A DNA stretch of 64,000 bases from Actinomycetota bacterium (GCA_016781135.1 JADDQY010000126.1:1861-65860); one strand, 5' to 3'; positions 1-28,812 are shown, counted from the first letter of the stretch. Numbers and translations are program-made. Notes: a model not told the origin generated them from the letters alone.

Positions 1-1
1 C

Positions 2-316: not shown

Positions 317-328
317 TCCCGCGGGAGT

Positions 329-2609: not shown

Positions 2610-2637
2610 CGGATGTCTTGGGAAGTCGCTTGAGAAG
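2590..2637. promoter_or_regulatory. Nested inverted-repeat operator candidate: CTTCCCA-N5-CTTCCCA-N10-TGGGAAG-N5-TGAGAAG
   Basis: Half-sites at 2590-2596, 2602-2608, 2619-2625 and 2631-2637, with 12-nt periodicity and symmetry about 2613/2614. The array straddles the ATG (2607-2609) of the TIGR04255-like gene in the divergent region shared with BREX. Confidence 0.5.
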
Positions 2638-2745
2638 TGTCATACCGTCTCTACACTGGGGACGACCTACGTCGTTCGACGTCGGCGTGGCAGAGACGAG
2701 GACAGTGGTCAGTTGGCCATGCTCTCGAGGTCGTGAGGCCTCCCC

Positions 2746-3279
2746 ATGACGGCGAGCGACTCGGCGCGCCTCGTGGTTGCCGTCGCGCGCCTGGGCGAGG
2801 CGGACCTCGCCGGCTGGTGGCGGTCGCATGGCCTTGACACGGTCGGCGAGTACGTGTTGCCGGACCTGTTCCCCCGAACGGCAACGGTTGTGGGGGCCGA
2901 GCTTGCCGTGCTGTCCGCGGCGAAGCGCCACGCCGACGCCTTGCCGGATCGCGACGACGTCCTCCACCTCTTCGGCGACCCACTTCCGGCCTTCGCAGAG
3001 GCGCTCGCGTGGTTGGCGGAGCTGAAGACAAGTGGCGAGACGAGCTTCCTCGACGAGCTCCGCGGCTGGTCGACGGCCGACGCCGCCCACGCCGAGGTCG
3101 GCGCCGCGACCGGGGAGGCGCCACCGGGCGAGCGGATCGGTACGACGCTGCGACTCGGCAAGGTGGCCGCAGCCGAGCTTGCCGATCCTGTCCGTGCCGC
3201 GGCGGTCGCGAAGTTCCTGGCTGCTGCGTACGCAGGTCAAGGTCGCGACCTCGCTGTCCCCTACTTCGATCTCGCATGA
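2746..3279 (+). CDS. Small protein translationally coupled to brxA (BrxE-like by position)
   Basis: 177 aa. Its stop overlaps the brxA start (ATGA at 3276-3279). It occupies the position brxE holds ahead of brxA in type 6 BREX. No catalytic motif seen. Confidence 0.5.
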   Translation: MTASDSARLVVAVARLGEADLAGWWRSHGLDTVGEYVLPDLFPRTATVVGAELAVLSAAKRHADALPDRDDVLHLFGDPLPAFAEALAWLAELKTSGETSFLDELRGWSTADAAHAEVGAATGEAPPGERIGTTLRLGKVAAAELADPVRAAAVAKFLAAAYAGQGRDLAVPYFDLA

Positions 3280-4040
3280 CGGCGCCGGCGTTTACCGTCA
3301 ACATCCAGAAGGGGGGCGCGTTGCTCCCCGACGCCCGCCGACTCGTGGAGGTCTGGGACGTGTCGGAGCCGGCTGAGGTGAACGTCCGGCGCGTCGCCGA
3401 CGAGAACCTGCTTGGCAAGACGACCAGGCGCCGCCTCGATGACGTCCTGTTGCGCTGCCTGGCGCCTCGTTTTGTCGAACCGGGACCTCACGTGGTCGCC
3501 GCGCTGAAGCGGCTGCTCCCCGATCACCGGGCCTTCATCGAGGCCGCCTACTACGAGACGAGCCGGGACGAGCGCTTGCTCGCTGCGTTTGCAGAGGGGC
3601 CGTGCTTCGCGTGGTACGACGCCGGGCGGTCCCGCGTGACGATCGACGACGCTACGTCATGGCTGGCGGAGCAAGCCGTCGCGGGCGTCTTGGCCGACTG
3701 GTCGCCGACGGTGCGGATCAAAGTCGGCCGCGGACTGCTGGCCGCACTGCGCGACTTCCAGGTTTTCGAAGGCGGCAAGCTCAAACGGTTCGCGCCGCCG
3801 CGGCTGTCCTTGCGTGGCTTCGCGTACGTCGCGTTCCGCCTCCACGAGCAGGGCGCGTCGTCGACGACCATCGCCACATCTCCTGTGTGGCGGCGTTGGC
3901 TCCTCGGCCGCGGGCGCGTCGACGACCTTCTGCACCAGGCTGCCTGCGCGGGACTCCTCACCTATGGCAGCGCCGGAACGGCGATCAGAATCGACTGGCA
4001 CGTCGCGACCGTCGAGGAGGCGATTCGTGCCGCTGCCTAG
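3276..4040 (+). CDS. brxA: BREX protein BrxA (DUF1819 family)
   Basis: The internal ATG at 3276 in the 3009..4040 frame gives 254 aa, MTAPAFTVNIQKGGALLPDARRL...ENLLGKTTRRRLDDVL. Call rests on DUF1819-like pattern and synteny. Confidence 0.75.
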   Translation: MTAPAFTVNIQKGGALLPDARRLVEVWDVSEPAEVNVRRVADENLLGKTTRRRLDDVLLRCLAPRFVEPGPHVVAALKRLLPDHRAFIEAAYYETSRDERLLAAFAEGPCFAWYDAGRSRVTIDDATSWLAEQAVAGVLADWSPTVRIKVGRGLLAALRDFQVFEGGKLKRFAPPRLSLRGFAYVAFRLHEQGASSTTIATSPVWRRWLLGRGRVDDLLHQAACAGLLTYGSAGTAIRIDWHVATVEEAIRAAA

Positions 4041-4605
4041 GACCATTCAGCAAGTCGCCGACACCATCGTCGCGTTCCATGCGAAGCCAGTCGGCGACGG
4101 CCCGTACCAGCTCTACCAGTACCTGCCGCACCAGGAGTACCGGGTCCGGCGGGATCTCGCCGACCTCAAGATCTGGCTCGAAGCCAAGCAGATCAACTGC
4201 GTCGCGATCTCCCTCGCCGATCTCTTCTGGCAGGCGATCGAGGAGAGCGGGCGCTTCGACGCGATCGTCAGCGCCGAGCAGGCCGGCGGTCCGACAGCGC
4301 TCGCGGAGGTCATCGAGTCCATCGGGAACCTCCTGCGGCGCAGCCTGTCGCTCACCGACCGCATCGTCGACGCCGTCAACGAGGTCTCACCCAGGTCGGC
4401 CGTGTTCCTCTACCGCGCCGGTGCCCTGTATCCCGCGATCCGCACCTCCGGGCTCCTCGACGAGCTGCTCGGGCGAGTCCTCCTGCCGGTCACCCTGCTG
4501 TACCCAGGACGCCTTCATGGCGACTTCGGCCTCAGCTTCATGGACATACTGCCGCCGCACTACGGCTACCGCGCCACGATCATCCCGAGAGGAGACGACG
4601 AGTGA
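4027..4605 (+). CDS. brxB: BREX protein BrxB (DUF1788 family)
   Basis: The GTG at 4027 in the 3814..4605 frame gives 192 aa ending ...LLYPGRLHGDFGLSFMDILPPHYGYRATII, typical of the DUF1788 C-terminus. Overlaps the brxA stop by 14 nt. Confidence 0.75.
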   Translation: MPLPRTIQQVADTIVAFHAKPVGDGPYQLYQYLPHQEYRVRRDLADLKIWLEAKQINCVAISLADLFWQAIEESGRFDAIVSAEQAGGPTALAEVIESIGNLLRRSLSLTDRIVDAVNEVSPRSAVFLYRAGALYPAIRTSGLLDELLGRVLLPVTLLYPGRLHGDFGLSFMDILPPHYGYRATIIPRGDDE

Positions 4606-7600
4606 AGGTCGCAGAGGTCTTCCGCCGGCCGATCGAGCGCCGCATCGAGGAGGTCATCAAGGTCGAGCTCGACGACGAGAAGACCGTCGCCGACGAGCTG
4701 ACCGAGTACGTCGCGACCGAGCGCATCCAAACAGCGATGGGGGAGGTGCTCGACTCCTACCAGGAAACCATCGACAACCCGACCGAGGACACCAACGTCT
4801 GGATCTCGGGGTTCTTCGGCTCCGGAAAGTCGAGCTTCGCCAAGGTCATCGGCTACCTCGTCGCCAACCCGGTCGTCGACGGGAAGCAGGCGAGCGACTG
4901 GTTCTTCGCCCACACCACCGCGCCCCGGCTCAAGCAGCTCCTGACGACGCAGATCCACGACCGGGCAAAGGCCGTCACCGTCCTCGTCGACCTGCTCTCC
5001 GCCCGAAACGTGTTGAACGAGGGCGAGAGCATCGTCCTACCGCTGTACCGCGCCCTGCTCGACCGCCTCGGCTACTCGACGGTGATCGCCCTCGCCGAGC
5101 AGGAGATCCGGCTCGAGAAGAAGGGCCTCTACGAGAAGTTCGCCGCCCGGTACCAGGAGCTGTACGACCGGCCGTGGTCGAGCGACCATCACGACCCCCT
5201 CGCCAAGAGCGAGATGAGCCGGGTCCTGCACGACATCGAGCCCGAGACCTTCGAGACCCCCGACAGCTTCGCCCACAGCCACTTCGACATTGCCATCGAC
5301 GCGAACTGGTTGGCGCAACGAGCGCTGGATCTACTCGACCGCCGCGGCCAGGGCGCCACCCGCGTGATGTTCGTAATCGACGAGGTCGGCCAGTACGTGG
5401 CTCGCGACGTCCACCGTGTCGGCGACCTCCAAGGTGTGGCCGAGGCGCTCCAGAAGACGCGCGGCCGGCTGTGGCTTTTGGCCACAAGTCAGCAGCGGCT
5501 CGAGGACATCGTCGAGTCGCTCGAGGGCAACCGGAGCGAGCTCGCCCGGGTGAAGGACCGCTTCCCGATCAAGGTCGACCTGCTCCCGTCCGACATCGAA
5601 GACGTCGTCGCCGCCCGCGTCTTGGACAAGTCCGCGGACGGGCAGGCCGAGGTCCGAACGAGGTTCGCGGCCTCCCGCAACCAGCTGAATGCGAACATCA
5701 AGCTCACCGGCTCCCGCGGGGCCGACCTGGCCGAGGAGCACGTCGTGCGCCTCTACCCGCTGCTGCCGTACCAGGTCCGGCTGTTCATCGACGCCGTCGC
5801 CGCCCGCCGCGAAGGCGGCATGGTGGGCGGCGCCAACCGCACGCTCCTGCGCCTCACCCAGCAGCTCGTGATCTCGCCCGACGTCGGCATCGCGGCCGAA
5901 CAGGTCGGGCGCCTCGCCACGGTCGACCGCGCCTACGACGTCATGGCCTCGATCGTGCCGCCCCGATGGCGCGACGAAGTCGAGCAGGTCGCGGCCCGCC
6001 ACTGTCCCGATGCGCTCCCGACCCGCGCCCTCAAGGTGATCGCGCTGTGCGTCGACGTCCGCGACCTCACGCTCGACGCCCACAACATCGCCGTGCTCCT
6101 CCACGACGACATGGCCGCCGAGTCGCTCGAGGCCGACGTGAAGGTGGCGTTGAAGACGCTCGTCGACGAAGGACGCATCGAGCTCGGCACCGCCGGCTAC
6201 CGCCTGCAGTCGCCCGAGGGGAAGTCGTGGATCGAGGCGCGCAACGTGATCACTCCCAAGGTCGCCGACGTCAACCGCCTCCGAAAGCAGCTCCTCGAGG
6301 GCCCGCTCGGGAGCCTCTCGGTCAACGCTGGACGGACGTTCACGGTCGAGCTGACCGTCGGCGACGAGAAGCTGTCGAAGGGAGACGTGCCCCTCGTGGT
6401 CGTCGAGCAGGACCCGAACGAGCTCCACGGCATCATCACCGAGTCGAGGGTCAAGAAGAACACCGTGTGGTGGACCCACACGCTGTCGAACGCGTCACTG
6501 CAGGCACTCGAGGAGCTCCACAAGAGCCAAGAGATGATCAACCGCCGTCAGGCCAGCGCGCGCGGTGGCGAGGACGCCGAGCTGGTGGCACGGGAGAAGC
6601 GCATCGCGGCCGAGTGGGAGGACAAGGCACGGCGCAGCATCGAGGCAGACCTCGCCACCGGGCGCGTCGTCTTCCTCGGTCGGGTCGACGCACCGCCGAC
6701 TGGCGACCTCAAGACGAGGGGCCAGAAGATCGTCGAGGAGCGGATTCCCGAGATCTACACGCGCCTCGGCGAGTTCGCCGCCTCACTCAAGGCGTCGGAC
6801 CCACTCGTCGTCCTGCGCGACGCAACTCTCGACGGGGTTCCTGCCGCGCTCACCGCGATCAAGCTCGTCGTGGTCAAGCCCTCAGGCAAGGAGATCGAGC
6901 GGACGAAGGGGCCGCTCAAGATGGTGCTCGACGAGATCGCCACCCAGCACGGCTACGGCGCCGAGGTGACCGGTGCCTCGCTTGCTAAGACGTTCGCGGC
7001 ACCGCCGTACGGCGCGTCCATGGAGGTGGTCCAGGCAGTCGTCGCCGCCGGCGTCCGCGAGGGCCTGCTGGACGTGCGATACCAGGGCGCCCTGATCAAG
7101 AACCCGGGCGACCAGCGACTCGACGCGGTGTTCAAGGGCCCCGCGGCGTTCCGCTCGGCAAGCTTCCGCTCGCACGAGGAGGTGGTGCCCGTCGACAAGC
7201 GCGTCGAGCTCGCGAAGAAGCTTACCCGCATCGTTGGCACCAAGGTAAACCCGACGACGGACGAGCTCGCGAGGACGGCCCGCGACATTTTCTCGCCGGA
7301 CGGCGCTGCAGCCGACCGAGTCCGCGCCACCCTCGTCGGCCTCGGCATCGCCGTCCCGACCGCCGTCACCACGGTCGCCGACGCCGCCCGCGACCTCGCG
7401 TCGGGCGATGACGACGGAACGGTGCTGACGGCCCTGGCCGTGTGGCACGACCTCGTCGCCGGGCGAGCCACCGTCGCCCAACTCGCGTCGCTCCTCGACG
7501 CCCACCTCGGCGAGTTGCGCGCCGCCCAGGAGGTCGCCGCCAGCTCCCCCGCCGGTCTGCCCGACGAGCTGGCTGCCGAGCACAGCGAGCTTCGCGATCT

Positions 7601-8057
7601 CCTCGACGCCGGTGACCTCGCCGACAAGCTCGGCCGAATCACCGCCATCACCGGCGCGATCACCGCCCATCGATCGGCTCGCCTGGCCAAGCTGCGCGCC
7701 GAGCTGGTCCAGCGCATGGAAGGCGAGCGCGCCGCGATCCGCGCTCGCTACCCGGCTGTCGACCCCGACGTGATGGCAGAGACGCTCTCACGCCTCGATC
7801 AGCTCAATCCGGTTGAGGGCGAGGAGGTCGGCACCGACGTGCTCGCGGCTCGCCTCGACGCCATCCAGAAGGCCGCCGCCGACGTCGCCCACGCGCTCGA
7901 CAAGGTCATCGCCAAGGAGCGGCTGGCAACGGTGCCGATCAGCGAGATCGCGCCGGACCTCATCCGCACCAGCGATGACCTCACCCTCGTCGTCGAGCGC
8001 CTCCAGAAGCAGGTCGCCGAGCTCCTGGGCGACGACAAGGAGGTCCGCCTCACGTGA
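4602..8057 (+). CDS. brxC: BREX ATPase BrxC/PglY
   Basis: 1151 aa with Walker A GFFGSGKSSFAKV near the N-terminus. GTGA overlap with brxB. Size and position are canonical. Confidence 0.9.
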   Translation: MKVAEVFRRPIERRIEEVIKVELDDEKTVADELTEYVATERIQTAMGEVLDSYQETIDNPTEDTNVWISGFFGSGKSSFAKVIGYLVANPVVDGKQASDWFFAHTTAPRLKQLLTTQIHDRAKAVTVLVDLLSARNVLNEGESIVLPLYRALLDRLGYSTVIALAEQEIRLEKKGLYEKFAARYQELYDRPWSSDHHDPLAKSEMSRVLHDIEPETFETPDSFAHSHFDIAIDANWLAQRALDLLDRRGQGATRVMFVIDEVGQYVARDVHRVGDLQGVAEALQKTRGRLWLLATSQQRLEDIVESLEGNRSELARVKDRFPIKVDLLPSDIEDVVAARVLDKSADGQAEVRTRFAASRNQLNANIKLTGSRGADLAEEHVVRLYPLLPYQVRLFIDAVAARREGGMVGGANRTLLRLTQQLVISPDVGIAAEQVGRLATVDRAYDVMASIVPPRWRDEVEQVAARHCPDALPTRALKVIALCVDVRDLTLDAHNIAVLLHDDMAAESLEADVKVALKTLVDEGRIELGTAGYRLQSPEGKSWIEARNVITPKVADVNRLRKQLLEGPLGSLSVNAGRTFTVELTVGDEKLSKGDVPLVVVEQDPNELHGIITESRVKKNTVWWTHTLSNASLQALEELHKSQEMINRRQASARGGEDAELVAREKRIAAEWEDKARRSIEADLATGRVVFLGRVDAPPTGDLKTRGQKIVEERIPEIYTRLGEFAASLKASDPLVVLRDATLDGVPAALTAIKLVVVKPSGKEIERTKGPLKMVLDEIATQHGYGAEVTGASLAKTFAAPPYGASMEVVQAVVAAGVREGLLDVRYQGALIKNPGDQRLDAVFKGPAAFRSASFRSHEEVVPVDKRVELAKKLTRIVGTKVNPTTDELARTARDIFSPDGAAADRVRATLVGLGIAVPTAVTTVADAARDLASGDDDGTVLTALAVWHDLVAGRATVAQLASLLDAHLGELRAAQEVAASSPAGLPDELAAEHSELRDLLDAGDLADKLGRITAITGAITAHRSARLAKLRAELVQRMEGERAAIRARYPAVDPDVMAETLSRLDQLNPVEGEEVGTDVLAARLDAIQKAAADVAHALDKVIAKERLATVPISEIAPDLIRTSDDLTLVVERLQKQVAELLGDDKEVRLT

Positions 8058-11000
8058 GCGGCCTGGACGAACGCCAGCGGCGCGCGCTCGCCCAGCTCGT
8101 CGCCGCCGCGCGTTCGACGCTCTACGACGACGCCGAGCGCGCCCTCCGCGGCGTCTATGGCATCGTCCCCGACGGCACGCTCCAGCCCGTCGAAGGGCTG
8201 GTGCCCGACCCCGCGCTCCACGCGCGCCGCAGGACGCTCGAGGACGTCCTGCGGTACCTCCGCGCCGACGGCGCGACCGCGAGCGGCGCTGTCGAGCGAC
8301 TCACCCGACAAGTCGCCTTCACCCACCTCAACCGGCTCCTCGCCATCCGCGTCGCTGACGCCCTCGGCGTCCTCGCCTCGTCGCTGCGCGACGGCACGGA
8401 CTCCGCCGGGTTCCGTCAATGGGTCACCGACCTCGCCCCGCTTCTCGCCACGGCCGACGACACCGGCGGCTACTGGACCTACCTCAGCCAGTGCGCCGAC
8501 GAGCTCGCCGTCGACGCTCCCGCCCTGTTCGACCCCCGCAATCCGCTGCTCGCGCTACGCCCGTCGAAGGCGGCCTTCGAGCAGGTCGTGGCGCTCCTCG
8601 CCGACCCCGCCAACGCCGACCTGTGGGACGCCGACGACACCTTCGGTTGGGCGTACCAATTCTTCAACACCAAGGACGAGCGCCAGCAGATGCGGGCCGC
8701 GTCCGCCGCGCCCCGCGACAGCCGCGAGCTCGCCGTGCGGAACCAGTTCTTCACGCCGGCCTACGTCGTGCGGTTCCTCGTCCACAACACCCTCGGCCGC
8801 CGCCTCGTCGACGCCGACGCGTCGACGCCGCTGCTCGACCAGCTCGACCTCCTCGTCGACCCACCGACCACCAAGGCCGCCCCGGTCGACCTCGCCCAGG
8901 TGAAAGTCCTCGACCCGGCGTGCGGCAGCGGCCACTTCCTCCTCGGTTGCTACGACGTGCTCGAAGCGGCGTGGGCGCTGCGGGGCGTCCCGCCCGCCGA
9001 GGCTGCCGCCCGCATCGTCCCTGCCCTGTGGGGCATCGACATCGACCCCCGCGCCGTCCAGGTCGCCCAGGCGGCCGTGATCTTCCGCGCCCGGCGCGCC
9101 TGCGGCCGCGCCGCGCTGCCGCCGCCGAACATCGTGTGCGCCCGCGCCCTGCCCGAGGACGAGGTGGCTTGGGCCCACGCCGAAGCCGGCCTCAGCGCCG
9201 ACCTCCGCCACCTTGTGGCCGAGATGCGCGCCGCCCTCCGTGACGCGCCCGTGCTCGGCCCCCTCCTCAAGGCCGAGCAGCGCCTCGCCGTGGCGATCCG
9301 CTCCACCATCGCCGGCGCCGACGACACCGGCGACGACCTCTTCGCCACGGCCGGCATCGCCCACGACAACTTCGGCAACGCCGAGCGCGCCTTAGTGGCG
9401 GCGCTCCAGCGCGCCGCCGACGCGACGACCGCGACCGCTGCGGAACGCCTTCTCGCCGCTCACGCGTCAGATGCCGTCCGCTTCCTCGAAGCAGTACGAA
9501 GCCGGTATGACGTCGTCCTGATGAATCCGCCGTTTGGATTGGCGGTGCCTGAGACTGAGGCCTATCTCAAGTCGGCATATGCCCTCGGGTGGACAGATCT
9601 CTATGCATGCTTTGTGTTCCGGGCTTTGGAACTGCTGCGCGCTGACGGTTACAGCGGGTCGATCACTTCGAATCAGTATTTTACGACTCGGAAGCTCCTA
9701 GGGTTCCGCAAACAACTAGTCGAACGACATCGGCCCATTGTTGTCGTGGATCTCGGGGCAGGTGTCCTCCATGACGCTGCTGTCAACGTGTCCTGTCAGA
9801 TTCTTCCAAACAGTCGGTACAGCGGTCAGACACTCTATGCCGATCTCGCACGTCTCATTGCAGCGGATCAAGCCGGGGCGTTTGATAGGGGGGAAGTTGA
9901 CTTCGCCTCAGTTGATCTGGCCACGTTTCTCAACGTCGATGGTGTCCCCTTCGCCTTTCACGTAGAGGTGGATCGCCTGGGAGCATGGAGCGAGTCCGCT
10001 GCGCGGTTTGAGCCGGCTATAGGGATCGTACGAACCGGAGGGAATACGTTCGACAACTTCCGGTTCGTCCGGTGCCGCTGGGAAGTAGAAACGAGCAAAC
10101 TCGGAACCGAGTGGGTCTCGTACCAAAAAGGTGGCGAGTTTAGGCCGTACTGGGCTAGCTCGCATCTTGTCGTTGACTGGCGCAACAACGGGGAACAGCT
10201 CCGCAACTTCGGGCACCAGCGTGGCGTGCTTCCTCAAGTGATGCAGTCGTCAACTCACTGGCGCCGACCAGGTCTCTGCTACCCGCGAGCAAACAAGATG
10301 CTCGGTGTTCGACTACTTCCGGCGAACGAGATCTTTGCTGAGAAGTCGATCGCAATATTCCCGGCAGAGGATGCGATCCTGCTTCCTGTGCTCGCGTTCC
10401 TGAACAGCTCTACGGCTCTGCAACTTGCACGTACCTTTGGGCGCAGCCGGTTCATCGAGAACAGTGCTATCAAGCGGCTGCCGGTGTCACGAGAGCAGAT
10501 CAGCGGCCTCCGTGATCTCGATGAGGACATCGCAGCATTGGTGGACATTGGTCGCCAGCAGGAAGCACTCGACGAGACGACTGCCCTGTTCAGGGGATTC
10601 ACCGTCGACTACGACAGGTGGGCGGACTGGATTTCTCTCGCGCGCTCCGAGGCTGCAGAGCTCCAACAGAGGATCGACCACGCCGTCGCGACACGTCTGG
10701 GCGTCGCCGTCGAGAGTGGGCAAGCCGAGCGCCTCGGCGCCATCCTTGACGCGCTCGTATCAACGGCCGACGCAAGCGAGTGGGGTCAGCGCCTGCTGAG
10801 CTTCCTCGTCGGCGCCGCGTTTCGACGGTGGGAGGTGACAACGGCCGCTCCCGGTAACTCGGTCTTCCGGTTGGGATGGACTAAGCCCTTACCGGCGGTG
10901 CCACCTGGGGCTGGGCCAGCGTGGGACAGTGCCGACGCCGACGCCGTTCAGTTCATACTTCTCGACGAGCCGGGCAGCGATCGGGACATCGTCGCCGCGG

Positions 11001-11569
11001 TCGAAGCGATCTCGGGGCGAATTGCAGCCGGGGGCGAACTTCTCGATCGCGCGGTGGCGGAGGTCGGTGAGCGGACGCTGCGTTCGTACATCCGACGGCG
11101 CTTCTTCAAGGAGCACCTCGGCCGCTACTCCAAGAGTCGGCGGCAGGCGCCCGTCTACTGGCAGCTCATGGTCCCATCGGGGCAGTGGAGCGCCTGGCTC
11201 TACGCCCCTCGATTCAGCCGGGAAATGCTCTACGCGCTGGTCACGTTGGCCGACCACCGTCTCGCCCTCGCCGGCGAGCGGATCGAGGCGCTCCAGCGTG
11301 ACGACACCACGTCGGCGCGGCAGCGGCAGAAGGCGGTCGACGCGGAACGCACCCTCGCGACGGAGCTGCAGGACCTGCGCGGCGACATCGCCCGGCTCGC
11401 CGGCCTCGGCTGGCAGCCCGACCTCGACGACGGCTACGTGCTGTGCGCCGCGCCACTCGCCCGGTGGTTCCCGAAGAACATGTGGCGGCAGCTCGGCGAG
11501 CAGCTCGCCGCCATCAAGAAGGGTGCCTACCCGTGGGCCGGCGTCGACGGGCACCGGGACGAGCTGTGA
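8054..11569 (+). CDS. pglX: BREX N6-adenine DNA methyltransferase PglX
   Basis: 1171 aa with SAM-binding VLDPACGSGHFLL and catalytic VVLMNPPFG. GTGA overlap with brxC. Confidence 0.9.
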   Translation: MSGLDERQRRALAQLVAAARSTLYDDAERALRGVYGIVPDGTLQPVEGLVPDPALHARRRTLEDVLRYLRADGATASGAVERLTRQVAFTHLNRLLAIRVADALGVLASSLRDGTDSAGFRQWVTDLAPLLATADDTGGYWTYLSQCADELAVDAPALFDPRNPLLALRPSKAAFEQVVALLADPANADLWDADDTFGWAYQFFNTKDERQQMRAASAAPRDSRELAVRNQFFTPAYVVRFLVHNTLGRRLVDADASTPLLDQLDLLVDPPTTKAAPVDLAQVKVLDPACGSGHFLLGCYDVLEAAWALRGVPPAEAAARIVPALWGIDIDPRAVQVAQAAVIFRARRACGRAALPPPNIVCARALPEDEVAWAHAEAGLSADLRHLVAEMRAALRDAPVLGPLLKAEQRLAVAIRSTIAGADDTGDDLFATAGIAHDNFGNAERALVAALQRAADATTATAAERLLAAHASDAVRFLEAVRSRYDVVLMNPPFGLAVPETEAYLKSAYALGWTDLYACFVFRALELLRADGYSGSITSNQYFTTRKLLGFRKQLVERHRPIVVVDLGAGVLHDAAVNVSCQILPNSRYSGQTLYADLARLIAADQAGAFDRGEVDFASVDLATFLNVDGVPFAFHVEVDRLGAWSESAARFEPAIGIVRTGGNTFDNFRFVRCRWEVETSKLGTEWVSYQKGGEFRPYWASSHLVVDWRNNGEQLRNFGHQRGVLPQVMQSSTHWRRPGLCYPRANKMLGVRLLPANEIFAEKSIAIFPAEDAILLPVLAFLNSSTALQLARTFGRSRFIENSAIKRLPVSREQISGLRDLDEDIAALVDIGRQQEALDETTALFRGFTVDYDRWADWISLARSEAAELQQRIDHAVATRLGVAVESGQAERLGAILDALVSTADASEWGQRLLSFLVGAAFRRWEVTTAAPGNSVFRLGWTKPLPAVPPGAGPAWDSADADAVQFILLDEPGSDRDIVAAVEAISGRIAAGGELLDRAVAEVGERTLRSYIRRRFFKEHLGRYSKSRRQAPVYWQLMVPSGQWSAWLYAPRFSREMLYALVTLADHRLALAGERIEALQRDDTTSARQRQKAVDAERTLATELQDLRGDIARLAGLGWQPDLDDGYVLCAAPLARWFPKNMWRQLGEQLAAIKKGAYPWAGVDGHRDEL

Positions 11570-14073
11570 CCAGCCCGCTCCGCACCCGGCTCGCCGACCT
11601 GCTCGCCTCGGCCATCGACCGCCACCACCTGGTCGTGTGGCAGGACACACCGGGCGAGTACGGCGCTGTCGCCGACGCGGCGGTGCCGGCCGACGTGGCC
11701 TTCGCTCGCTACGACGGCAGCTGGTTCGAGCTCCGCCACCGCGTCGAGACGCAGCTCGCGCTGGCCGAGCCGCCACGGCTCGTGGTCTACGTCGGCGCCG
11801 GCCCGCCCCCCGCTGACCCGCTCGCTGAGTTGCGGGCAGCCGCCCACATCTTCGAGATGCCTCTCCGCACGCTCGTCAGGACGGCGCTCGACACCCATCT
11901 CGCCGCCACCCAGATCGACGCCATCGCCGACAGTGCGAAGACCTTCGGGGAGGCCGAGGCCGCCGCCGGCACCGGCGTCCCCCCCGGGGTCGTCTCGCTC
12001 GTGCCGATCCTCGGCGCCGGCCTCTCCGCCGTCGCCATGATCGTCGAGGTGCTCGGCGGCCGCCGGGACGCCGCAGTCGACGCGAAGGCCGCGTGGGGCG
12101 ACGTCCAGCGCCTCGTCGAGCGGACCTTAAACATCGCCACCGGCGACACCCACGACAAGCTGCGCGAGACCGTCGCACGCGTGTTGCTCCTCGACGCCGT
12201 CGACCGTGCGGGCGTGCTCCCGGAACGCCTCCACACCGCCCTCCCATCTGCCGACGACACCCAGCTGGCGGCCCGCGCGCAAGCCATCGGCGAGTGGTGG
12301 GCCCGGCATCCCGAGCAAGCTGCGGTCGCGTTCAGGGCCGCGGACGACAGCGCTGGTCTCGCCGAAGACATTCGCTGGGCCGACGACCTCGCCGCGGTCG
12401 ACGTCGCCGGGTCGATCGAATCGATCGCCGCCCGACGGGCGCTCGACCTGATCGCCGGCGGCGACAACGGCGCCGCGGAGGCGCTCGCCCTGCGGCGACT
12501 CGGTGGGCGGTGGACGCGGCTCGCCACCGTTGTCCCGGCGTCCGATGACGGCTGGGCCATGCGCTGGCGGGCGATCGTCGCTCTGGCGGAGCTACGCCAT
12601 GACATCGCTGCCCATGTGGTTGCGGCGGGAGCCGACAGCTCGGCGATGCTCACCTGGTACGCCAGCGATGGCTGGCGCGCCGACCGCGCCCACCGCCGGC
12701 TCGAGCTGGCCCTCACCGCTCTCGCCGAGCATGGTGAGCTCGAGCAACCCGTCGCCGAGGTCCGCGCCGCGTACGAGGACTGGCTCGCCGCGGTCATCGA
12801 GCGCTTCACCAACGCCGTCGACGCGGCCGGCTTCGCCACCGGGTCGCTGCTGCGGCAGTCAGAGATCTTCGCTCGTTACGTCAAGACCGGCGACCTCCCG
12901 ACCGCGTACATCTGGGTCGACGCATTCCGCTACGAGCTCGCCGTGGACGTCACCGAGTCCCTGCGCGCCGCCGGCAACGACGTGGAGCTAGTGCCCGCCA
13001 TCGCAGCGGCGCCCACGATCACACCGGTCGGCATGGCCAACTTGTGCCCCGGCTCAGACCAGGGCTTCTACATCGACGAGCACGGCGGCACGCTGACCGT
13101 CAACGTCGCCGGCACGATCGTTGCCAACGTCGACGACCGGCGGAAACTGCTCCGAGGCGCGCTCGGCGAGGTCGCCGACCTCGAGCTGGGCAAGTGCGTG
13201 CAGCTTGGCGAGCAGGCGCTACGCAAGGAGATCGAGGGCGCCAAAGCGGTCCTTGTCCGCTCCACCGAGTTCGACGTCCACGGCGAGTCCGGTCTCCTGA
13301 GCGCGGCGTGGACCGGCTTCGCCGACACACAGGGGACCCTGCCGCGGGTCGTCGCCAAGCTCGCCAAGGCCGGCGTCCGCAGGGTGGTCATCACCGCCGA
13401 CCACGGCTTCATCTCCCTCAGCCGCCGCCTCGGCGACGCCTACAAGATCGACGCTCCCAAGGGCGGTAGCGGCGACCTCCACCGCCGGGCGTGGATCGGC
13501 CGGGGCGGCGTCGACCATCCCTCGGTCGTCCGCGTGCCACTCGCCTCGACGGGCGTGTCGTCCGACCTCGACCTGCTCGTCCCCCGAGGGCTCGCCCTGT
13601 TCAAGGCGGGCGGCTCGAAGCAGTTCTTCCACGGCGGGCTGTCACCGCAGGAGCTGGTCGTGCCCGTCGTCGTCGCGGACCTCGCCGTGCCCGCCGACAC
13701 CGGCTCGGTCAAGGTCGACGTCGACGTCGTCGGTGGCGTGATCTCCACCGGCGTCTTCGCCGCGACGGTCTCTTTCAGCGGCAACCTCTTCACCGCCTCG
13801 GTCGTCGTCCGGGCCGTCGCCCGCCGCGGCAAGGACCTCGTCGTCGCCCATGTGGTCAGCGGCGACGGCTTCGATCCCGCATCCGGCACCGTCGAGGTCC
13901 CCGCGAGCAACGAGGTGCGCCTGGTGTTCCAGGTGACGAAGCGACTCGAGCCGAACGACCAGGTCGAGGTGCACGTGCTCGACGCCCGCACCGACGCCAT
14001 CCTGGGGAAGGCCTCCGTTTCGGTGGCTGCGCCCGTGTCGACCTTCGACGACGACCTCGAGGACGAGCGATGA
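11566..14073 (+). CDS. pglZ: BREX alkaline-phosphatase-fold protein PglZ
   Basis: The GTG at 11566 (GTGA overlap with the pglX stop) gives 835 aa. PglZ-type VVITADHGF block. Canonical position. Confidence 0.85.
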   Translation: MTSPLRTRLADLLASAIDRHHLVVWQDTPGEYGAVADAAVPADVAFARYDGSWFELRHRVETQLALAEPPRLVVYVGAGPPPADPLAELRAAAHIFEMPLRTLVRTALDTHLAATQIDAIADSAKTFGEAEAAAGTGVPPGVVSLVPILGAGLSAVAMIVEVLGGRRDAAVDAKAAWGDVQRLVERTLNIATGDTHDKLRETVARVLLLDAVDRAGVLPERLHTALPSADDTQLAARAQAIGEWWARHPEQAAVAFRAADDSAGLAEDIRWADDLAAVDVAGSIESIAARRALDLIAGGDNGAAEALALRRLGGRWTRLATVVPASDDGWAMRWRAIVALAELRHDIAAHVVAAGADSSAMLTWYASDGWRADRAHRRLELALTALAEHGELEQPVAEVRAAYEDWLAAVIERFTNAVDAAGFATGSLLRQSEIFARYVKTGDLPTAYIWVDAFRYELAVDVTESLRAAGNDVELVPAIAAAPTITPVGMANLCPGSDQGFYIDEHGGTLTVNVAGTIVANVDDRRKLLRGALGEVADLELGKCVQLGEQALRKEIEGAKAVLVRSTEFDVHGESGLLSAAWTGFADTQGTLPRVVAKLAKAGVRRVVITADHGFISLSRRLGDAYKIDAPKGGSGDLHRRAWIGRGGVDHPSVVRVPLASTGVSSDLDLLVPRGLALFKAGGSKQFFHGGLSPQELVVPVVVADLAVPADTGSVKVDVDVVGGVISTGVFAATVSFSGNLFTASVVVRAVARRGKDLVVAHVVSGDGFDPASGTVEVPASNEVRLVFQVTKRLEPNDQVEVHVLDARTDAILGKASVSVAAPVSTFDDDLEDER

Positions 14074-16091
14074 GCATCAAGATGGATCACCTCGACCGCC
14101 TGGCCAACGACGTCTTCCCCGGGCGCGTCGTCCGCAAGGACCTCGTGCGCCGCGTCAAGGTCGGCCACAACGTCCCGGTGCACGTGCTCGAGTTCCTCCT
14201 GGGCAAGTACTGCGCGTCCGACAACCCCGACGTGGTCGAGCAGGGCCTCGTCGTGGTCAACCAGACCCTGCAGGAGAACTTCATCCGCCCCGACGAGGCG
14301 GAGCTCGCCAAGGCGAAGGTGAAGTTCAAGGGGCAGCACCGGATCATCGACAAGGTCGAGGCTCGGCTCGCCGAAAACCGGTTCTGGGCCACGCTCAGCA
14401 ACTTCACCGACAAGTGGGTCCACATCCACGAGGACATCGTGAAGCGCTACGAACGCCTTCTGCAGGGCGGCGTGTGGTGCCAGATCGACCTTATCTACAA
14501 CGAGCTGGAGGACGAGAAGCCGCTCCGGCCCTTCTACATCAAGGCTCTGAAGCCGATCCAGGTTGCGGCGTTCGACATCGAGGACTACCTCGCCGGCCGC
14601 TCGCGCTTCTCGCGTGACGATTGGCTCGATCTCCTCGTCCGCTCCATCGGCCTGGAGGCGTCGCAGTACGACCTTCGCGCCAAGCTCGTCTCGCTGACAC
14701 GCCTGATCCCGATGGTCGAGCGCAACTACAACCTGATCGAGCTCGGCCCGTGGGGTACAGGCAAGTCGTTCGTGTACCGGGAGCAGTCACCAAACACCAT
14801 CCTCGTGTCGGGCGGCAAGGTCACCGTCCCGCAGCTGTTCGTCAACAACGCGACCGGACGCGTCGGCCTGCTCGGGATGTGGGATGTCGTCGCCTTCGAC
14901 GAGGTTGCCGGGCTCGAGCTCTCCGACACCACGGTTGTCCAGATGCTCAAGGACTACATGGAGGCGGGGTCGTTCGCTCGCGGCCGCGACGAGATCGTCG
15001 CCGAAGCCTCGACTGTGTTCGTCGGCAACACCACCCGACCGCACACCCAGCTGGTCCGCGACGCCCACCTCTTCGCCGACTTGCCGAAGGCGATGATCGA
15101 CCCGGCCTTCCTCGATCGCATGCACTTCTACCTTCCGGGGTGGGAAACGCCGAAGCTCGAGCCTCAGTTGTTCACCGACCACTACGGCTTCGTCTCGGAC
15201 TACCTCTCGGAGGCAATGCGGCAGCTGCGAAAGCGCACGTTCGTGAACGCGATCGACGCCGAGTTCGCTCTCGGCCCGCACCTGGCTCAGCGAGACGCGA
15301 AGGCCGTTCGCAAGACGGTTTCAGGTCTGCTCAAGCTGCTCCACCCTCACGGCGAGTGGACCCGCTCCGAGCTGCGTGAGTACCTCGAGTGGGCGATGGA
15401 AGGTCGCCGCCGTGTGAAGGAGCAGCTGAAGAAGCTCGCCGCGCACGACTTCTCGAAGACGGCCTTCACCTATGTCGAGGTCGATACGGGCCGCGAGTAC
15501 CCGGTCGAGGTGGCGGAGCAGCCGGAGGAGGATGTCGTCGCCGAGGCCCTCGAAGAGGAGCCGGCCGCGGGCGTGAGCGGCGGCGTTGACGCGGGGCCCG
15601 CGGTGCTGCCGACGGCCGAGTTGATCGCGGCTGGCGAGAGCCGCAACGTCGAGTTCAAGTCGACCGCTCGGTTGAACCTCCACACCAACCAGCGCGACCC
15701 CGCGATCGAGCTCGCCGTGGTCAAGACCGTCGCCGGGTTTCTCAACACTTACGGCGGCACGCTGGTGATCGGCGTGGCCGACGACGGCACCCTTCGGGGA
15801 CTGCACGACGACTACGTCACCGTGGGCAAAAAGGGCCGTGACGGGTACGAGAACTTCCTCACGACGCTGCTGGACACACGCGTCGGGCGAGCGGCCGTGG
15901 CGCACGTGAGCGTCAGCTTTGAGGCGGTCGACGGCCACGACGTCTGCCGGGTCGACGTGAAGCCCAGTCCCGAACCGGTCTTCGTGACGAACGACAAGGG
16001 CGACGCCGACCTCTACGTCCGTCTCAACAACAGCACCCGGCTGTTGAACACGTCGGACGCCTTGACGTACGTCCGGCAGCATTGGCGATAG
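14070..16091 (+). CDS. brxL: BrxL-type AAA ATPase with C-terminal AlbA_2 (Schlafen-like) domain
   Basis: The ATG at 14070 (ATGA overlap with the pglZ stop) gives 673 aa. BrxL-like N-terminus (FPGRVVRKDLV...VLEFLLGKYC), Walker A GPWGTGKS and Walker B VVAFDEV. An acidic linker is followed by ESRNVEFKS...VAGFLNTYGGTLVIGVADDG, which is AlbA_2-like. Confidence 0.8.
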   Translation: MSIKMDHLDRLANDVFPGRVVRKDLVRRVKVGHNVPVHVLEFLLGKYCASDNPDVVEQGLVVVNQTLQENFIRPDEAELAKAKVKFKGQHRIIDKVEARLAENRFWATLSNFTDKWVHIHEDIVKRYERLLQGGVWCQIDLIYNELEDEKPLRPFYIKALKPIQVAAFDIEDYLAGRSRFSRDDWLDLLVRSIGLEASQYDLRAKLVSLTRLIPMVERNYNLIELGPWGTGKSFVYREQSPNTILVSGGKVTVPQLFVNNATGRVGLLGMWDVVAFDEVAGLELSDTTVVQMLKDYMEAGSFARGRDEIVAEASTVFVGNTTRPHTQLVRDAHLFADLPKAMIDPAFLDRMHFYLPGWETPKLEPQLFTDHYGFVSDYLSEAMRQLRKRTFVNAIDAEFALGPHLAQRDAKAVRKTVSGLLKLLHPHGEWTRSELREYLEWAMEGRRRVKEQLKKLAAHDFSKTAFTYVEVDTGREYPVEVAEQPEEDVVAEALEEEPAAGVSGGVDAGPAVLPTAELIAAGESRNVEFKSTARLNLHTNQRDPAIELAVVKTVAGFLNTYGGTLVIGVADDGTLRGLHDDYVTVGKKGRDGYENFLTTLLDTRVGRAAVAHVSVSFEAVDGHDVCRVDVKPSPEPVFVTNDKGDADLYVRLNNSTRLLNTSDALTYVRQHWR

Positions 16092-16110
16092 GCGACTCGG
16101 AGGAGACCAC

Positions 16111-17961
16111 ATGCCGGCGGTGAGCACGTTCGACAGCACCAAGACCGACCTGGTCGAGCTCCTTACGAGCGCTCGAACTGGTGAGGCGCAGCTGCCCGAT
16201 TTCCAGCGCGGGTGGGTTTGGGACGACGAGCACATCCGCGACCTGATCGCGAGCGTCTCCCGGTCGTTCCCGATCGGCACGGTGATGATGCTGGAGCACG
16301 GCGGCGAGGTGAGCTTCCGAACTCGCCCGCTCGAGGGCGCCACACCCGATTCCCGCACCCCCGAGCTGCTCGTCCTCGACGGTCAGCAGCGGCTCACGTC
16401 GCTGTTCCAGTCGCTCATGTCCGGCAAGCCGGTCGCGACCAAGGACGCCAAGGCGCTTCCTATCGAGCGGTGGTACTACCTCGACATCCGGAAGTGCCTC
16501 GACCCGAACATCGAACGTGAGGACGCCGTCTTCTCGATCCCGGCCGATCGAGTCCTGCGCACGAACTTCGGCCGGGACGTCGTGATCGACCTCAGCACGA
16601 GAAGCGATGAGTACGAGCAGTGCATGTTTCCGCTGAGCGAGGTGTTCGACCACTACGACTGGGCCTCGGGGTTCAGAGAGAGGCATGGATACGACCCCGA
16701 CGTCAGCCGGATGTGGGACAAGTTCGAGCGCGACGTCGTCCAGCGCTTCCGCTCGTACCAGCTACCGGTCATCCGGCTCCACAAGCAGACGCCGAAGGAG
16801 GCCGTCTGCCTCGTTTTCGAGAAGGTCAACACCGGCGGCGTGTCGCTGACCGTCTTCGAGTTGCTGACTGCCACCTTTGCCGCCGTTGCGCCACCGGACT
16901 TCGAGCTCCGCGGCGACTGGGAGGCGCGAGAGCGCCGTCTCCACCAACAGCGCGTGCTGCGCGACGTCGCAAACACCGACTTCTTGCAGGCGATCACGCT
17001 GATCGTCACACGAGAGCGGCAACAAGCAGCGCTAGCTGCCGGCGAAGAGGAGGACCGTGTCCCCGGCATCAGCTGCAAGCGCCGAGACATCCTCCGCCTG
17101 ACCTTCGACGACTACCAGCGGTGTGCCGATCCGGTCACGCAGGGCTTCGAGCGGGTCGCTCGCTTCCTGCACCGGGAGCGCATCTTCGAGACGAAGTACC
17201 TGCCCTACAGCACCCAGCTCGTTCCGCTGGCGGCGCTGCTCTCCGTCCTAGGCGATGACGGCTTGGAGAAGCCTGCGGTGCGGGACAAGCTGGCGCGCTG
17301 GTACTGGTGCGGCGTCTTCGGAGAGCTGTACGGCTCAGCGACCGAGACACGCTTCGCCCGTGACCTGCCGGAAGTGCTGCGTTGGATTGAGGATGACACC
17401 GCTGTCCCCCGGACGATCGTCGATGCGAACCTCACGCCAGAGCGTGTGGTAACGCTCCGCACCCGCAACAGCGCCGCCTACAAGGGCGTGTATGTGCTGC
17501 TCATCCGGGAGGGCGCTCGTGACTTCCGCACCGGCGAAACGGCGAACGACCAGAACTACTTCGAGGAAGCAGTCGACATCCATCACATCTTCCCGCAGAA
17601 GTGGTGCCGTGAGCGCAAGCCCGAACCGGTTTCCGCCGGGCTGTTCGACAGCATCGTGAACAAGACACCGTTGACAGCTCGCACCAATCGGATAATCGGC
17701 GGGCGAGCGCCGAGCGAGTATCTGAGGAGCCTGCGCGAGAACCACGGTGTGTCGAAGGCCGACGAGACGAAGAACCTCGAGTCGCACTTCATCGAGCCGG
17801 AGAACCTCCGCGCTGATGACTTCGAAGCGTTCTTCCGCGCCCGGCACCGGGAGCTCCTCGACCGAATCGGCGCAGTCATGAGGAAACAGCTCCTTGTCGA
17901 TCGGACGGAGACCGCGGCGAAACCGGTCTCGTACGAGGAGCTTGAGGGCACAGACGAGTGA
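16111..17961 (+). CDS. GmrSD-family type IV restriction enzyme (DUF262 + DUF1524), BrxU-like
   Basis: 616 aa. N-terminal LPDFQRGWVW and LVLDGQQRLTSL (DUF262). C-terminal DIHHIFPQKW...NKTPLTARTN (DUF1524 His-Me finger). Lies 19 nt after brxL with a GGAGGA Shine-Dalgarno. Confidence 0.85.
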   Translation: MPAVSTFDSTKTDLVELLTSARTGEAQLPDFQRGWVWDDEHIRDLIASVSRSFPIGTVMMLEHGGEVSFRTRPLEGATPDSRTPELLVLDGQQRLTSLFQSLMSGKPVATKDAKALPIERWYYLDIRKCLDPNIEREDAVFSIPADRVLRTNFGRDVVIDLSTRSDEYEQCMFPLSEVFDHYDWASGFRERHGYDPDVSRMWDKFERDVVQRFRSYQLPVIRLHKQTPKEAVCLVFEKVNTGGVSLTVFELLTATFAAVAPPDFELRGDWEARERRLHQQRVLRDVANTDFLQAITLIVTRERQQAALAAGEEEDRVPGISCKRRDILRLTFDDYQRCADPVTQGFERVARFLHRERIFETKYLPYSTQLVPLAALLSVLGDDGLEKPAVRDKLARWYWCGVFGELYGSATETRFARDLPEVLRWIEDDTAVPRTIVDANLTPERVVTLRTRNSAAYKGVYVLLIREGARDFRTGETANDQNYFEEAVDIHHIFPQKWCRERKPEPVSAGLFDSIVNKTPLTARTNRIIGGRAPSEYLRSLRENHGVSKADETKNLESHFIEPENLRADDFEAFFRARHRELLDRIGAVMRKQLLVDRTETAAKPVSYEELEGTDE

Positions 17962-17990
17962 CCCCGACGGCGATCACCCCGACGGCGATC
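17961..17990. repeat. Perfect 15-bp tandem direct repeat (ACCCCGACGGCGATC x2)
   Basis: Copies at 17961-17975 and 17976-17990. They fill the gap between the convergent GmrSD stop and integrase stop. Confidence 0.9.
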
Positions 17991-19236
17991 AATCGCTCAG
18001 GGGCGGGCACCGACGGAGCAGGGCACCGAGCGTGTCGGCCGCCCGTTCGTCGGCGGCCTGGAGGAACTGGGCGTAGAAGTCGAGCGTCGTCGAGGCGTTG
18101 GCGTGCCCGAGTCGACCGCTGACCGTGCGGATGTCGATGCCGGCCGTCAGGAGCTGCGTGGCGCTGAAGTGGCGAAGGTGGTGGAGCTTCACGCCCTCGA
18201 GCCCGAGCTCGTCACGGAGGCGGCCGAAGGCGAGGGTGGCGTAGTTCGGACGCCAGGGCTTCGAGAAGTCGACCTCGTGCGAGAACAGGAACGAGTTCGG
18301 CGAGAGCTTCGCTCCGCACTTCGTAGCCAGCTCCTCGCACGCCTGGCGGTGAGCGATGAGCAGGGCGGTCGTCTCTTCGTCGAGGGTGACCTTCCGGACC
18401 TGGTGCGTCTTGGTGTCCTTCTCGATGAGCTCGCCGCCAACCTCGACGATGCTGCGGGCGATCGTCACCCGGCGCTTGTCGAGGTCGACGTGCTTCCACC
18501 GCAGCGCGCAGAGCTCGGCGCGGCGGGCCCCCGTCGCTGCCGCCAACCGGAAGCAGGTCGGGAGCGACGGGTTGACCTTCGTCGCCGCCTCGATCAGCCG
18601 GGCGACGTCGGCGGGGTCGGGCAGCTCGAGGTACTGCTTCTTCGAGCGCGGCGGCGTGGCGTTGGCCGCCGGGTTCACCGTGAGCCACCCCCACTTCACG
18701 CCCTGGGCGAGCGCGCGCCGCAGCACGGCGTGGGCGCGCATCACCGTGTTCGGGGCGAGTGCGGTGCCGCCGGGGCCGCCCGACCGGCGAAGCTTTGAGT
18801 ACCACTGGTCGAGGTCCGCGGTACGGAGACGACGGAGGGGTACGTCGGCCCAGCGCGGGAGGATCCGCTTGTCGAGCAACCGGCGGTACTCGGCGGCGAC
18901 CGCCGGCGACAGGTCCGGCGCGGCGTGGGAGTACCAGCGCTCGCACAACTCGCCGACGGTTCCGGCTTGAACGGCGTGTTGGCCGTCTTCGATCTCGGCG
19001 AGCAGCCGGCCGAGGGCGACCTCGGCCTCTCGACGCTCGCCGCGGACGGTGCGTGTGACGTAGCGCTTCTTGCCCGTCTCGGCGTCCTTGCCGGCGAAGG
19101 CTCGGATCTCCCAGGACTGCTTCCCTCGCTGGCGGATCGACCCGGCCACGACCGCCACCGTACCGCGGTCGGATGGGCAAGAGTAGCGATTTGGATGGGC
19201 AACCGCCTCTCGGAACGGTTCAGCACCCGCAGACAC
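17989..19236 (-). CDS. Tyrosine recombinase / phage-type integrase
   Basis: 415 aa. C-terminal catalytic region HHLRHFSATQLLTAGIDIRTVSGRLGHANASTTLDFYAQF (R..H..R..Y pattern). Adjacent to the tRNA 3' end. Confidence 0.9.
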   Translation of the reverse strand: MSAGAEPFREAVAHPNRYSCPSDRGTVAVVAGSIRQRGKQSWEIRAFAGKDAETGKKRYVTRTVRGERREAEVALGRLLAEIEDGQHAVQAGTVGELCERWYSHAAPDLSPAVAAEYRRLLDKRILPRWADVPLRRLRTADLDQWYSKLRRSGGPGGTALAPNTVMRAHAVLRRALAQGVKWGWLTVNPAANATPPRSKKQYLELPDPADVARLIEAATKVNPSLPTCFRLAAATGARRAELCALRWKHVDLDKRRVTIARSIVEVGGELIEKDTKTHQVRKVTLDEETTALLIAHRQACEELATKCGAKLSPNSFLFSHEVDFSKPWRPNYATLAFGRLRDELGLEGVKLHHLRHFSATQLLTAGIDIRTVSGRLGHANASTTLDFYAQFLQAADERAADTLGALLRRCPPLSD

Positions 19237-19260
19237 CGCCCTTGACCTGCTACTTTGCGG

Positions 19261-19333
19261 CGCCCCCGGCAGGACTCGAACCTGCGACGCACGGTTTAGG
19301 AAACCGACGCTCTATCCTCTGAGCTACGGGGGC
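19261..19333 (-). tRNA. tRNA-Arg (anticodon CCT)
   Basis: Hand fold: acceptor GCCCCCG/CGGGGGC, D arm GCTC-AGAGGATA-GAGC, anticodon arm TCGGT-TTCCTAA-ACCGT, T arm GCAGG-TTCGAGT-CCTGC, discriminator G. CCA is not encoded. Confidence 0.85.
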
Positions 19334-19549
19334 TGACGGTCTGAAAGCGCTGGCCAGCGCCCATTGTTGCCGACGGTCGCCCACCTGCTTGCCATCTATA
19401 GGCCGCGGTTAGGGGCGGAGCGATCGGTGTTGCGCAGAGCCATGGCTGGCTGGCTCCGACCTCGCCCGCTACCCAACGGTTTCACCGTACCCCCGAAGCT
19501 CGATCATGTGACGAACACGACCGGCTGACCGTGCCCCGGGAACCGACAG

Positions 19550-28799: not shown

Positions 28800-28812
28800 C
28801 GGGCCAAGGTAG

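Follow-up and report, generated by a model that had tools for sequence, protein, structure and literature searches.

The question raised by the locus at positions 2746-17961 of a 64,000-nucleotide (nt) stretch of DNA from an Actinomycetota bacterium (GCA_016781135.1, JADDQY010000126.1:1861-65860; the whole stretch is referred to as the window) is whether a bacteriophage exclusion (BREX) operon with a type 1 gene order, which also begins with a gene of the BrxE family and ends with a GmrSD-type enzyme, is a local mixture of BREX subtypes or a member of an established lineage. Our analysis indicates that the locus is likely an intact BREX anti-phage operon, probably expressed as a single transcript, that belongs to a conserved and mostly actinobacterial lineage characterized by a leading BrxE and a BrxL protein with a Schlafen-type domain, and to which a clade-specific GmrSD has been appended.

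ORF (open reading frame) listing and translation identified eight co-directional genes on the + strand, preceded by a promoter-like site:

2630..2657, + strand: promoter-like site TTGAGA-16-TACACT, 89 nt 5′ of brxE, within a 137-nt divergent intergenic region
2746..3279, + strand: brxE-family gene, first in the operon; 177 amino acids (aa); overlaps brxA by 4 nt
3276..4040, + strand: brxA; 254 aa; Pfam BrxA 51.7 bits (cut-off 23); PADLOC BrxA E = 3.5e-32
4027..4605, + strand: brxB; 192 aa; Pfam BrxB 61.1 bits (cut-off 26.8); PADLOC BrxB E = 1.3e-24
4602..8057, + strand: brxC, P-loop ATPase; 1151 aa; NCBIfam BREX_BrxC NF033441 584.7 bits (cut-off 400); PADLOC E = 1.5e-163
8054..11569, + strand: pglX, N6-adenine DNA methyltransferase; 1171 aa; PADLOC PglX E = 1e-198; Pfam Eco57I matches
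11566..14073, + strand: pglZ; 835 aa; Pfam PglZ 53 bits (cut-off 25); PADLOC PglZ E = 1e-95
14070..16091, + strand: brxL; 673 aa, comprising BrxL_N, AAA+ ATPase, acidic linker and Schlafen/AlbA_2 domain
15636..16046, + strand: Schlafen/AlbA_2 domain of BrxL (aa 523-659); Pfam PF04326 E = 1.4e-15
16111..17961, + strand: gmrSD, putative type IV restriction enzyme (DUF262 + HNH-like); 616 aa; Pfam GmrSD_N 104.9 bits

These are exactly the eight genes that a preliminary description of the sequence had placed here, and the same eight gene calls are found on the public contig record JAGELD010000035.1 (GCA_017884145.1), where the window corresponds to 1870-65869 (offset 1869). The tight coupling of the genes was likewise recovered, with 4-nt overlaps at five junctions (ATGA at 3276 and 14070; GTGA at 4602, 8054 and 11566) and a 14-nt overlap between brxA and brxB (4027-4040). 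The spacer between brxL and gmrSD is 19 nt long and includes GGAGGAG, and a terminator scan found no terminator-like site at the gene junctions, including that between brxL and gmrSD. The promoter-like site is the sole sigma-70-like match in positions 1-19600, and the G+C content is 62-73% across the operon region of this G+C-rich window.

The six core proteins, BrxA, BrxB, BrxC, PglX, PglZ and BrxL, were identified concordantly with the Pfam, PADLOC and NCBIfam profile hidden Markov models (HMMs), and matches that reach E = 1e-198 for PglX, 1.5e-163 for BrxC and 2e-211 for BrxL are, as judged from these profiles, not due to chance. The order brxA-brxB-brxC-pglX-pglZ-brxL on one strand matches that of type 1 BREX. 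All of the hallmark motifs that had been listed are present: GFFGSGKS of BrxC at 4809-4832, DPACGSGHF and NPPF of PglX at 8912-8938 and 9524-9535, ADHGF of PglZ at 13396-13410, and the Walker A sequence GPWGTGKS of BrxL at 14745-14768. The earlier reading of a complete operon in type 1 order is thus borne out, together with its expectation that the core proteins would match BREX HMMs. The reading of a textbook type 1 core holds for order and motifs only; it does not hold for the C-terminal domain of BrxL, nor for the BREX-1 cut-offs of PglX and PglZ. PglZ scored 91 bits against a cut-off of 270 for the NCBIfam BREX-1 type A model and 92 bits against 400 for type B, and it is below every NCBIfam subtype cut-off. 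PglX has 1171 aa compared to approximately 1290 aa in its relatives; its first ~480 residues are highly conserved, while its central region (after approximately aa 500, and especially ~500-900) diverges sharply. Because the center diverges and the N-terminal part is conserved, the pattern fits a changed target-recognition region and may indicate a different methylation motif.

To place the locus among its relatives, 185,579 genomes, one per species, were scanned for PglZ homologues with 10-kb flanks, and the 55 loci obtained were then searched by tblastn and HMM. BrxE was located immediately 5′ of BrxA in all 32 loci that had sufficient upstream sequence, and the distance from the BrxE stop to the BrxA start was between -4 and +8 nt in 31 of 34 loci. 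The order of the cassette was invariably BrxE-BrxA-BrxB-BrxC-PglX-PglZ-BrxL. The Schlafen domain was present within the BrxL ORF in 44 loci, and the exceptions among the loci with a visible BrxL were four divergent or damaged ones. No homologue of BrxD or BrxHI was found in any of the related loci with queries taken from the type-6-like locus L061. The hosts are mostly Actinomycetota (Acidimicrobiia, Thermoleophilia, Solirubrobacterales, Gaiella, Mycobacterium and Gordonia), with a few metagenome-assembled genomes labelled as Gemmatimonadota, Myxococcales and others. Identities across the lineage go down to 34-50% in every cassette gene, which argues for long vertical co-evolution of the gene set. 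Since the same cassette occurs in 32 of 32 informative loci, the locus described here belongs to a coherent lineage and is not a chimera. In the preliminary description the locus was said to mix subtype features; the combination of a type 1 core with BrxE is confirmed, while the notion of a local mixture has to be replaced by that of a lineage-wide cassette. One Acidimicrobiales chromosome (OY760933.1) carries two separate BrxE-led cassettes, L018 and L021.

The assignment of the 177-aa leading gene (2746-3279) to BrxE, which the preliminary description had proposed from its resemblance and position, was supported by the NCBIfam model NF033447 (BrxE_fam), which it matched at 80.4 bits (cut-off 40) over residues 7-174 and profile positions 5-168 of 169. 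An identical protein and the database homologues carry the precomputed Pfam assignment PF26412 (BrxE). No match was obtained in the local Pfam-A copy, nor in PADLOC-DB v2 even at E ≤ 10, so PADLOC-DB v2 would leave this gene unlabelled. A BrxE profile searched against 1.84 billion cluster representatives matched 559 clusters at E ≤ 1e-3, and the best 150 of these were small stand-alone proteins or fragments, with full-length members of ~170-260 aa and one of 350 aa. Among the polar residues that are invariant in BrxE are R15, D20, W24, W25, T45, H62, R69, H74 and E92, and K94, Y173 and D175 are nearly invariant (at least 90%). The AlphaFold2 (AF2) model has a predicted local distance difference test (pLDDT) score of 96, and a fold search with it gave nothing significant, the best E value being 1.9 in PDB and 1.1 in BFVD. 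BrxE had no match among the PLSDB plasmids. The idea that BrxE is a detached domain of BrxA was rejected, as the comparison of the two profiles gave a probability of 2.6%. From its position, BrxE is most likely a stoichiometric partner of the DNA-binding protein BrxA.

In the literature, BrxE is described as confined to type 6 BREX (PMC12839542), and the preliminary description likewise restricted a leading brxE to that type. The 32 of 32 BrxL-containing loci in which BrxE precedes BrxA show that this statement does not hold.

The second distinguishing feature of the lineage is the C-terminal domain of BrxL, which the preliminary description, made from the sequence only, had missed. BrxL scored 681 bits with TIGR02653 (cut-off 628), yet only profile positions 3-494 of 675 were covered. 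The BrxL profile matches end at approximately residue 495 and are followed by an acidic linker and then by SLFN_AlbA_2 (PF04326; 58.3 bits, cut-off 25.3) at residues 523-659. The Pfam domains are therefore BrxL_N, BrxL_ATPase and SLFN_AlbA_2, and the Lon-protease-like C-terminal domain is absent. All 120 of the best database homologues, down to 67% identity, share these three domains; among them are Mycolicibacterium monacense, Acidimicrobiia, Gaiellaceae and Gemmatimonas proteins to which NCBI gives the name "protease Lon-related BREX system protein BrxL". The Ex4ExK motif ESRNVEFK (15636-15659, aa 523-530) and GVADDG (15771-15788, aa 568-573) are present, and E523, E528, K530 and D571 are invariant among 23 sequences of the C-terminal domain. 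When searched against PDB by phmmer, the C-terminal region alone gave noise only and a profile was required. The profile of the 23 domains matched SLFN14, SLFN11, SLFN13/8, SLFN5 and SLFN12, with a best E value of 4e-7 (SLFN14 and SLFN11 at 4e-7 to 1e-6). The AF2 model of the domain has a pLDDT of 92, and Foldseek matched it with a probability of 1.0 to the AlbA_2 protein DIP2311, the N-domain of SLFN13, SAMD9 and SLFN14. The deposited mutant structures SLFN14 E211A and SLFN11 E209A alter positions that are equivalent to the BrxL motif residues. Ex4(E/D)xK is the Schlafen catalytic motif that is needed in bacterial Schlafen defence (bioRxiv 10.1101/2025.07.24.666596). By analogy with these proteins, the domain is most likely a nuclease effector, predicted to be either a tRNase/RNase or a single-strand nuclease.

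In a survey of BREX systems, the C-terminal domains of BrxL were solely Lon-like, HKD-nuclease or none, and Schlafen proteins were present solely as separate neighbouring genes (NAR 2026, PMC12839542). In the preprint on prokaryotic Schlafens, the main text has no BREX or BrxL fusions, and the supplement has BREX genes only as neighbours (bioRxiv 10.1101/2025.07.24.666596). As far as the literature was searched, both the presence of BrxE outside type 6 and the Schlafen-type BrxL are visible in databases and appear to be undescribed.

The last gene of the operon was confirmed to encode a GmrSD-type enzyme located 19 nt after brxL. The N-terminal domain GmrSD_N (DUF262, ParB-like; PF03235) was matched at 104.9 bits (cut-off 33.2; E = 8e-30), DGQQR is located at 16378-16392 (aa 90-94), and an HNH-like motif DIHHIFP…N…N, with DIHHIFP at 17575-17595, resembles DHIYP of BrxU and EHICP of HEC-06. 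The PADLOC matches were HEC-05 and PDC-M55C, that to HEC-05 being only E = 1e-19 and over the N-terminal part. A phmmer search of PDB gave no BrxU or SspE match, and its match to a taurine dioxygenase was rejected as spurious. The closest relative of the operon, L064 (94% BrxL identity), has a 90%-identical GmrSD 14 nt after brxL, and the sequence beyond its gmrSD is unrelated to the window; this retained adjacency argues that GmrSD is an accessory of recent origin that moves together with the operon. GmrSD is absent from L006/L066, whose BrxL identity is 88%, and the genes 3′ of BrxL in the relatives are heterogeneous, with no conserved eighth gene. Judging by this distribution of homologues, GmrSD is confined to a narrow clade as an accessory and does not form part of the lineage cassette. 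In five loci (L047, L048, L050, L051 and L052), a HEC-01A (ABC ATPase)/HEC-01B pair is located between pglZ and brxL, for example at L050:12469-14314 and L048:4252-6095. BREX systems with embedded defence genes have been described before, and the GmrSD here and the HEC-01 pair in relatives agree with this pattern.

If the operon works by analogy with type 1 BREX, PglX together with BrxB, BrxC and PglZ would methylate adenine at N6 in a short non-palindromic motif of the host, and incoming DNA without this mark would be kept from replicating. BrxE, going by its position, may act as a partner of BrxA. BrxL would retain its N-terminal part and AAA+ ring, and the Schlafen-type domain carried on the ring would be its nuclease effector, by analogy with Schlafens. 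GmrSD would then cut glucosylated or hypermodified phage DNA that escapes the methylation-based BREX, as BrxU does on pEFER.

Several points weigh against the reading of the locus as an intact operon with these functions. PglX scored 466 bits with the NCBIfam BREX-1 PglX model, just below the cut-off of 500, and the best NCBIfam model for PglZ is BREX-6 PglZ, at 190 bits and below its cut-off of 400. The role of BrxE is a guess, because neither a homologue of known function nor a related fold was found for it. Nuclease activity of BrxL is not assured, since AlbA_2 domains are also nucleic-acid-binding modules. The match of GmrSD to the C-terminal domain GmrSD_C (DUF1524 HNH-like; PF07510) is weak, at 16.5 bits and below the cut-off of 23, and none of the 55 species-level loci has a GmrSD homologue, so the activity of the enzyme may have little to do with BREX. 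With 1 match compared to 0.8 expected, the promoter scan lacks significance, and the hint of a promoter comes from the position of the site. Finally, the source is a metagenome-assembled contig.

A different role for the AlbA_2 domain of BrxL, that of a nucleic-acid-binding or sensing module and not a nuclease effector, would be in keeping with several of the observations. The best folds include the DNA-bound DNA-binding domain of SAMD9 (a DNA-binding/tRNase domain) and SLFN5, which is described as DNA/RNA-binding. The related AlbA_2 domains on plasmids are fused to methylases, DUF262 proteins, ATPases and many other defence proteins; the best plasmid match, a stand-alone protein of Actinomyces oris in a non-defence context, was uninformative. 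In addition, the Lon-like domain that has been replaced is itself catalytically inactive (PMC12839542). However, Ex4ExK and the downstream Asp are invariant in the 23 divergent sequences, and these are exactly the residues on which both the RNase activity of Schlafens and the Schlafen defence of bacteria depend. A purely binding or sensing function is therefore considered somewhat unlikely, and the nuclease effector is retained as the preferred interpretation of the domain.

It is similarly doubtful that GmrSD is merely an autonomous neighbouring gene in a defence island, with no functional part in BREX. This explanation is consistent with the absence of GmrSD from the 55 species-level loci and from L006/L066, with the ability of the GmrSD-like proteins BrxU/HEC-05 and HEC-06 to defend alone when cloned, and with the different accessory, the HEC-01A/B pair, of other lineage members. 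Against it, gmrSD is on the same strand as brxL and follows it after 19 nt with its own ribosome-binding site and no terminator-like site between them, and the adjacency of the two genes persists in L064 in spite of the unrelated downstream flank. GmrSD thus travels with the operon and is probably transcribed with it. Biochemical autonomy and operon membership of GmrSD are compatible.

A decaying or silent remnant on an island would be in line with the lack of a significant promoter and with the metagenomic source, but it is very improbable, as all eight frames are intact, all catalytic motifs are present and identical copies are found in independent assemblies. A one-off recombinant, in which a type 1 core was joined to a type 6 brxE, is extremely unlikely: the literature on BrxE (PMC12839542) and the best NCBIfam match of PglZ may suggest it, but the seven-gene cassette recurs in every informative locus, in Acidimicrobiia, Thermoleophilia, Mycobacterium, Gordonia and others, with the low identities in every gene that indicate long vertical co-evolution.

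Type 1 BREX, which reportedly goes back to the Goldfarb 2015 classification and is said to be represented in E. coli HS, Salmonella and Acinetobacter, shares with the operon the six core genes in the same order and the same P-loop, methyltransferase and PglZ motifs, and PADLOC-type tools would call the locus BREX type I. The operon differs from type 1 in its extra leading BrxE, in the replacement of the Lon-like domain of BrxL by Schlafen/AlbA_2, and in that PglX and PglZ are below the NCBIfam BREX-1 equivalogs, with PglZ scoring higher on the BREX-6 model. The gene order of type 6 BREX is brxE-brxA-brxB-brxC-brxD-pglX-brxHI-pglZ. The operon is similar to this type in that a BrxE-family gene is coupled to brxA at the beginning and that its PglZ is closer to the BREX-6 than to the BREX-1 profiles. 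In contrast to type 6, the BrxD ATPase and the BrxHI helicase are absent, all eight genes being otherwise assigned, and BrxL is present instead; furthermore, BrxE fails the BREX-6 BrxE equivalog NF033448 (32 bits, cut-off 80).

The BrxL-HKD variants of type 1 (PMC12839542) are comparable in that a predicted nuclease has taken the place of the inactive Lon-like domain and the N-terminal and AAA+ parts are kept, although the nuclease is of the HKD/phospholipase-D type in those variants and Schlafen/AlbA_2 here. The prokaryotic Schlafens, or pSlfn (bioRxiv 10.1101/2025.07.24.666596), share the Schlafen fold, the Ex4(E/D)xK motif and the fusion to a potential control module, but the partner here is the AAA+ ring of BrxL within a BREX operon. 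On the plasmid pEFER, BREX and the GmrSD-family enzyme BrxU complement each other (PMC8565348; a precedent for BREX with GmrSD is also given in PMC12839542). In both systems, BREX is physically connected to a GmrSD-like enzyme (DUF262/HNH) encoded on the same strand, and the two defences would be expected to complement each other by covering phage DNA with and without modification. They differ in that BrxU is embedded, whereas the GmrSD here follows brxL, is distant from BrxU and comes from another host clade.

It is tentatively proposed that the cassette with a leading BrxE and a Schlafen-BrxL constitutes an unrecognised BREX subtype, found mainly in Actinomycetota, in which the BrxL ring would deliver an active tRNase or nuclease and BrxE would be the lineage-defining partner of BrxA that is shared with type 6. 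If this were true, BREX would not only exclude phage by methylation but also act through RNA cleavage or abortive infection. The means by which BREX blocks phage and the function of BrxL are still under debate, and the widespread natural Schlafen-BrxL variant offers a direct test of the BrxL position as an effector slot. The variant also links BREX to the Schlafens, which act as tRNases in the antiviral immunity of animals. The occurrence of BrxE beyond type 6 supports merging the classifications of types 1 and 6 and provides a tractable setting for the function of BrxE. The locus also adds to the cases in which the accessory defences carried by BREX are interchangeable, with GmrSD in this operon and HEC-01 in its relatives. 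The window itself adds one more member of the lineage, in an uncultured genome.

On its right side, the operon is bordered by two features on the opposite strand:

17989..19236, - strand: tyrosine integrase; Pfam Phage_integrase E = 1e-22 and a SAM-like N-terminal domain
19259..19333, - strand: tRNA-Arg (CCT), identified by ARAGORN

The integrase is convergent with the operon, with its stop codon 27 nt from that of gmrSD, and adjoins the tRNA gene, at which the island bearing the operon is likely to have integrated. The convergent integrase beside tRNA-Arg(CCT) implies that the BREX operon forms the end of an integrated island, and this location fits horizontal spread. Integrase homologues also adjoin BrxL in L042 (immediately), L051, L030, L010 and L020. 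To the right of the tRNA are ordinary chromosomal genes (ligase, glycosidases, non-ribosomal peptide synthetase (NRPS)). A search for attachment (att) sites found no copy of the tRNA 3′ end to the left. The only repeat obtained, a 16-nt exact direct repeat, CCGCCCTTGACCTGCT, at 54-69 and 19236-19251 (blastn-short E = 0.003), was rejected as a convincing att site. It lies outside the tRNA; one copy is between the integrase start and the tRNA, and the other is in the 3′ part of the helicase gene at the left edge. This RecD/TraA-like helicase (AAA_30, SH3_13; L001:3-2185) ends at position 316 of the window, which suggests that the mobile element extends leftward beyond the window, and the island may extend beyond the available contig sequence as well.

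Upstream of the operon, a divergent three-gene operon is present on the - strand at 329-2609, encoding proteins of 272, 234 and 254 aa with 4-nt overlaps between the genes. The product of the middle gene has an HTH_3 domain and weak RmrA-like matches. These three genes were rejected as a conserved BREX regulator module, since they were found solely in near-identical contigs. An inverted repeat, ACTTCCCA…TGGGAAGT, at 2601-2627 lies across the start of the divergent 272-aa gene and directly next to the promoter-like site (2630-2657), and it is a possible operator, as a candidate from sequence, for the helix-turn-helix protein.

Farther to the right, NRPS modules (A-T-C; C fused to an ABC ATPase) and an ATP-dependent DNA ligase are encoded within 39584-46249 and 27255-28925, and are unrelated to BREX. 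At the 3′ end of the operon, a perfect 15-nt tandem duplication of CCCCGACGGCGATCA (two copies, 17962-17991) fills the gap between the gmrSD stop and the integrase stop; it may be the scar of an insertion or may have arisen by chance.

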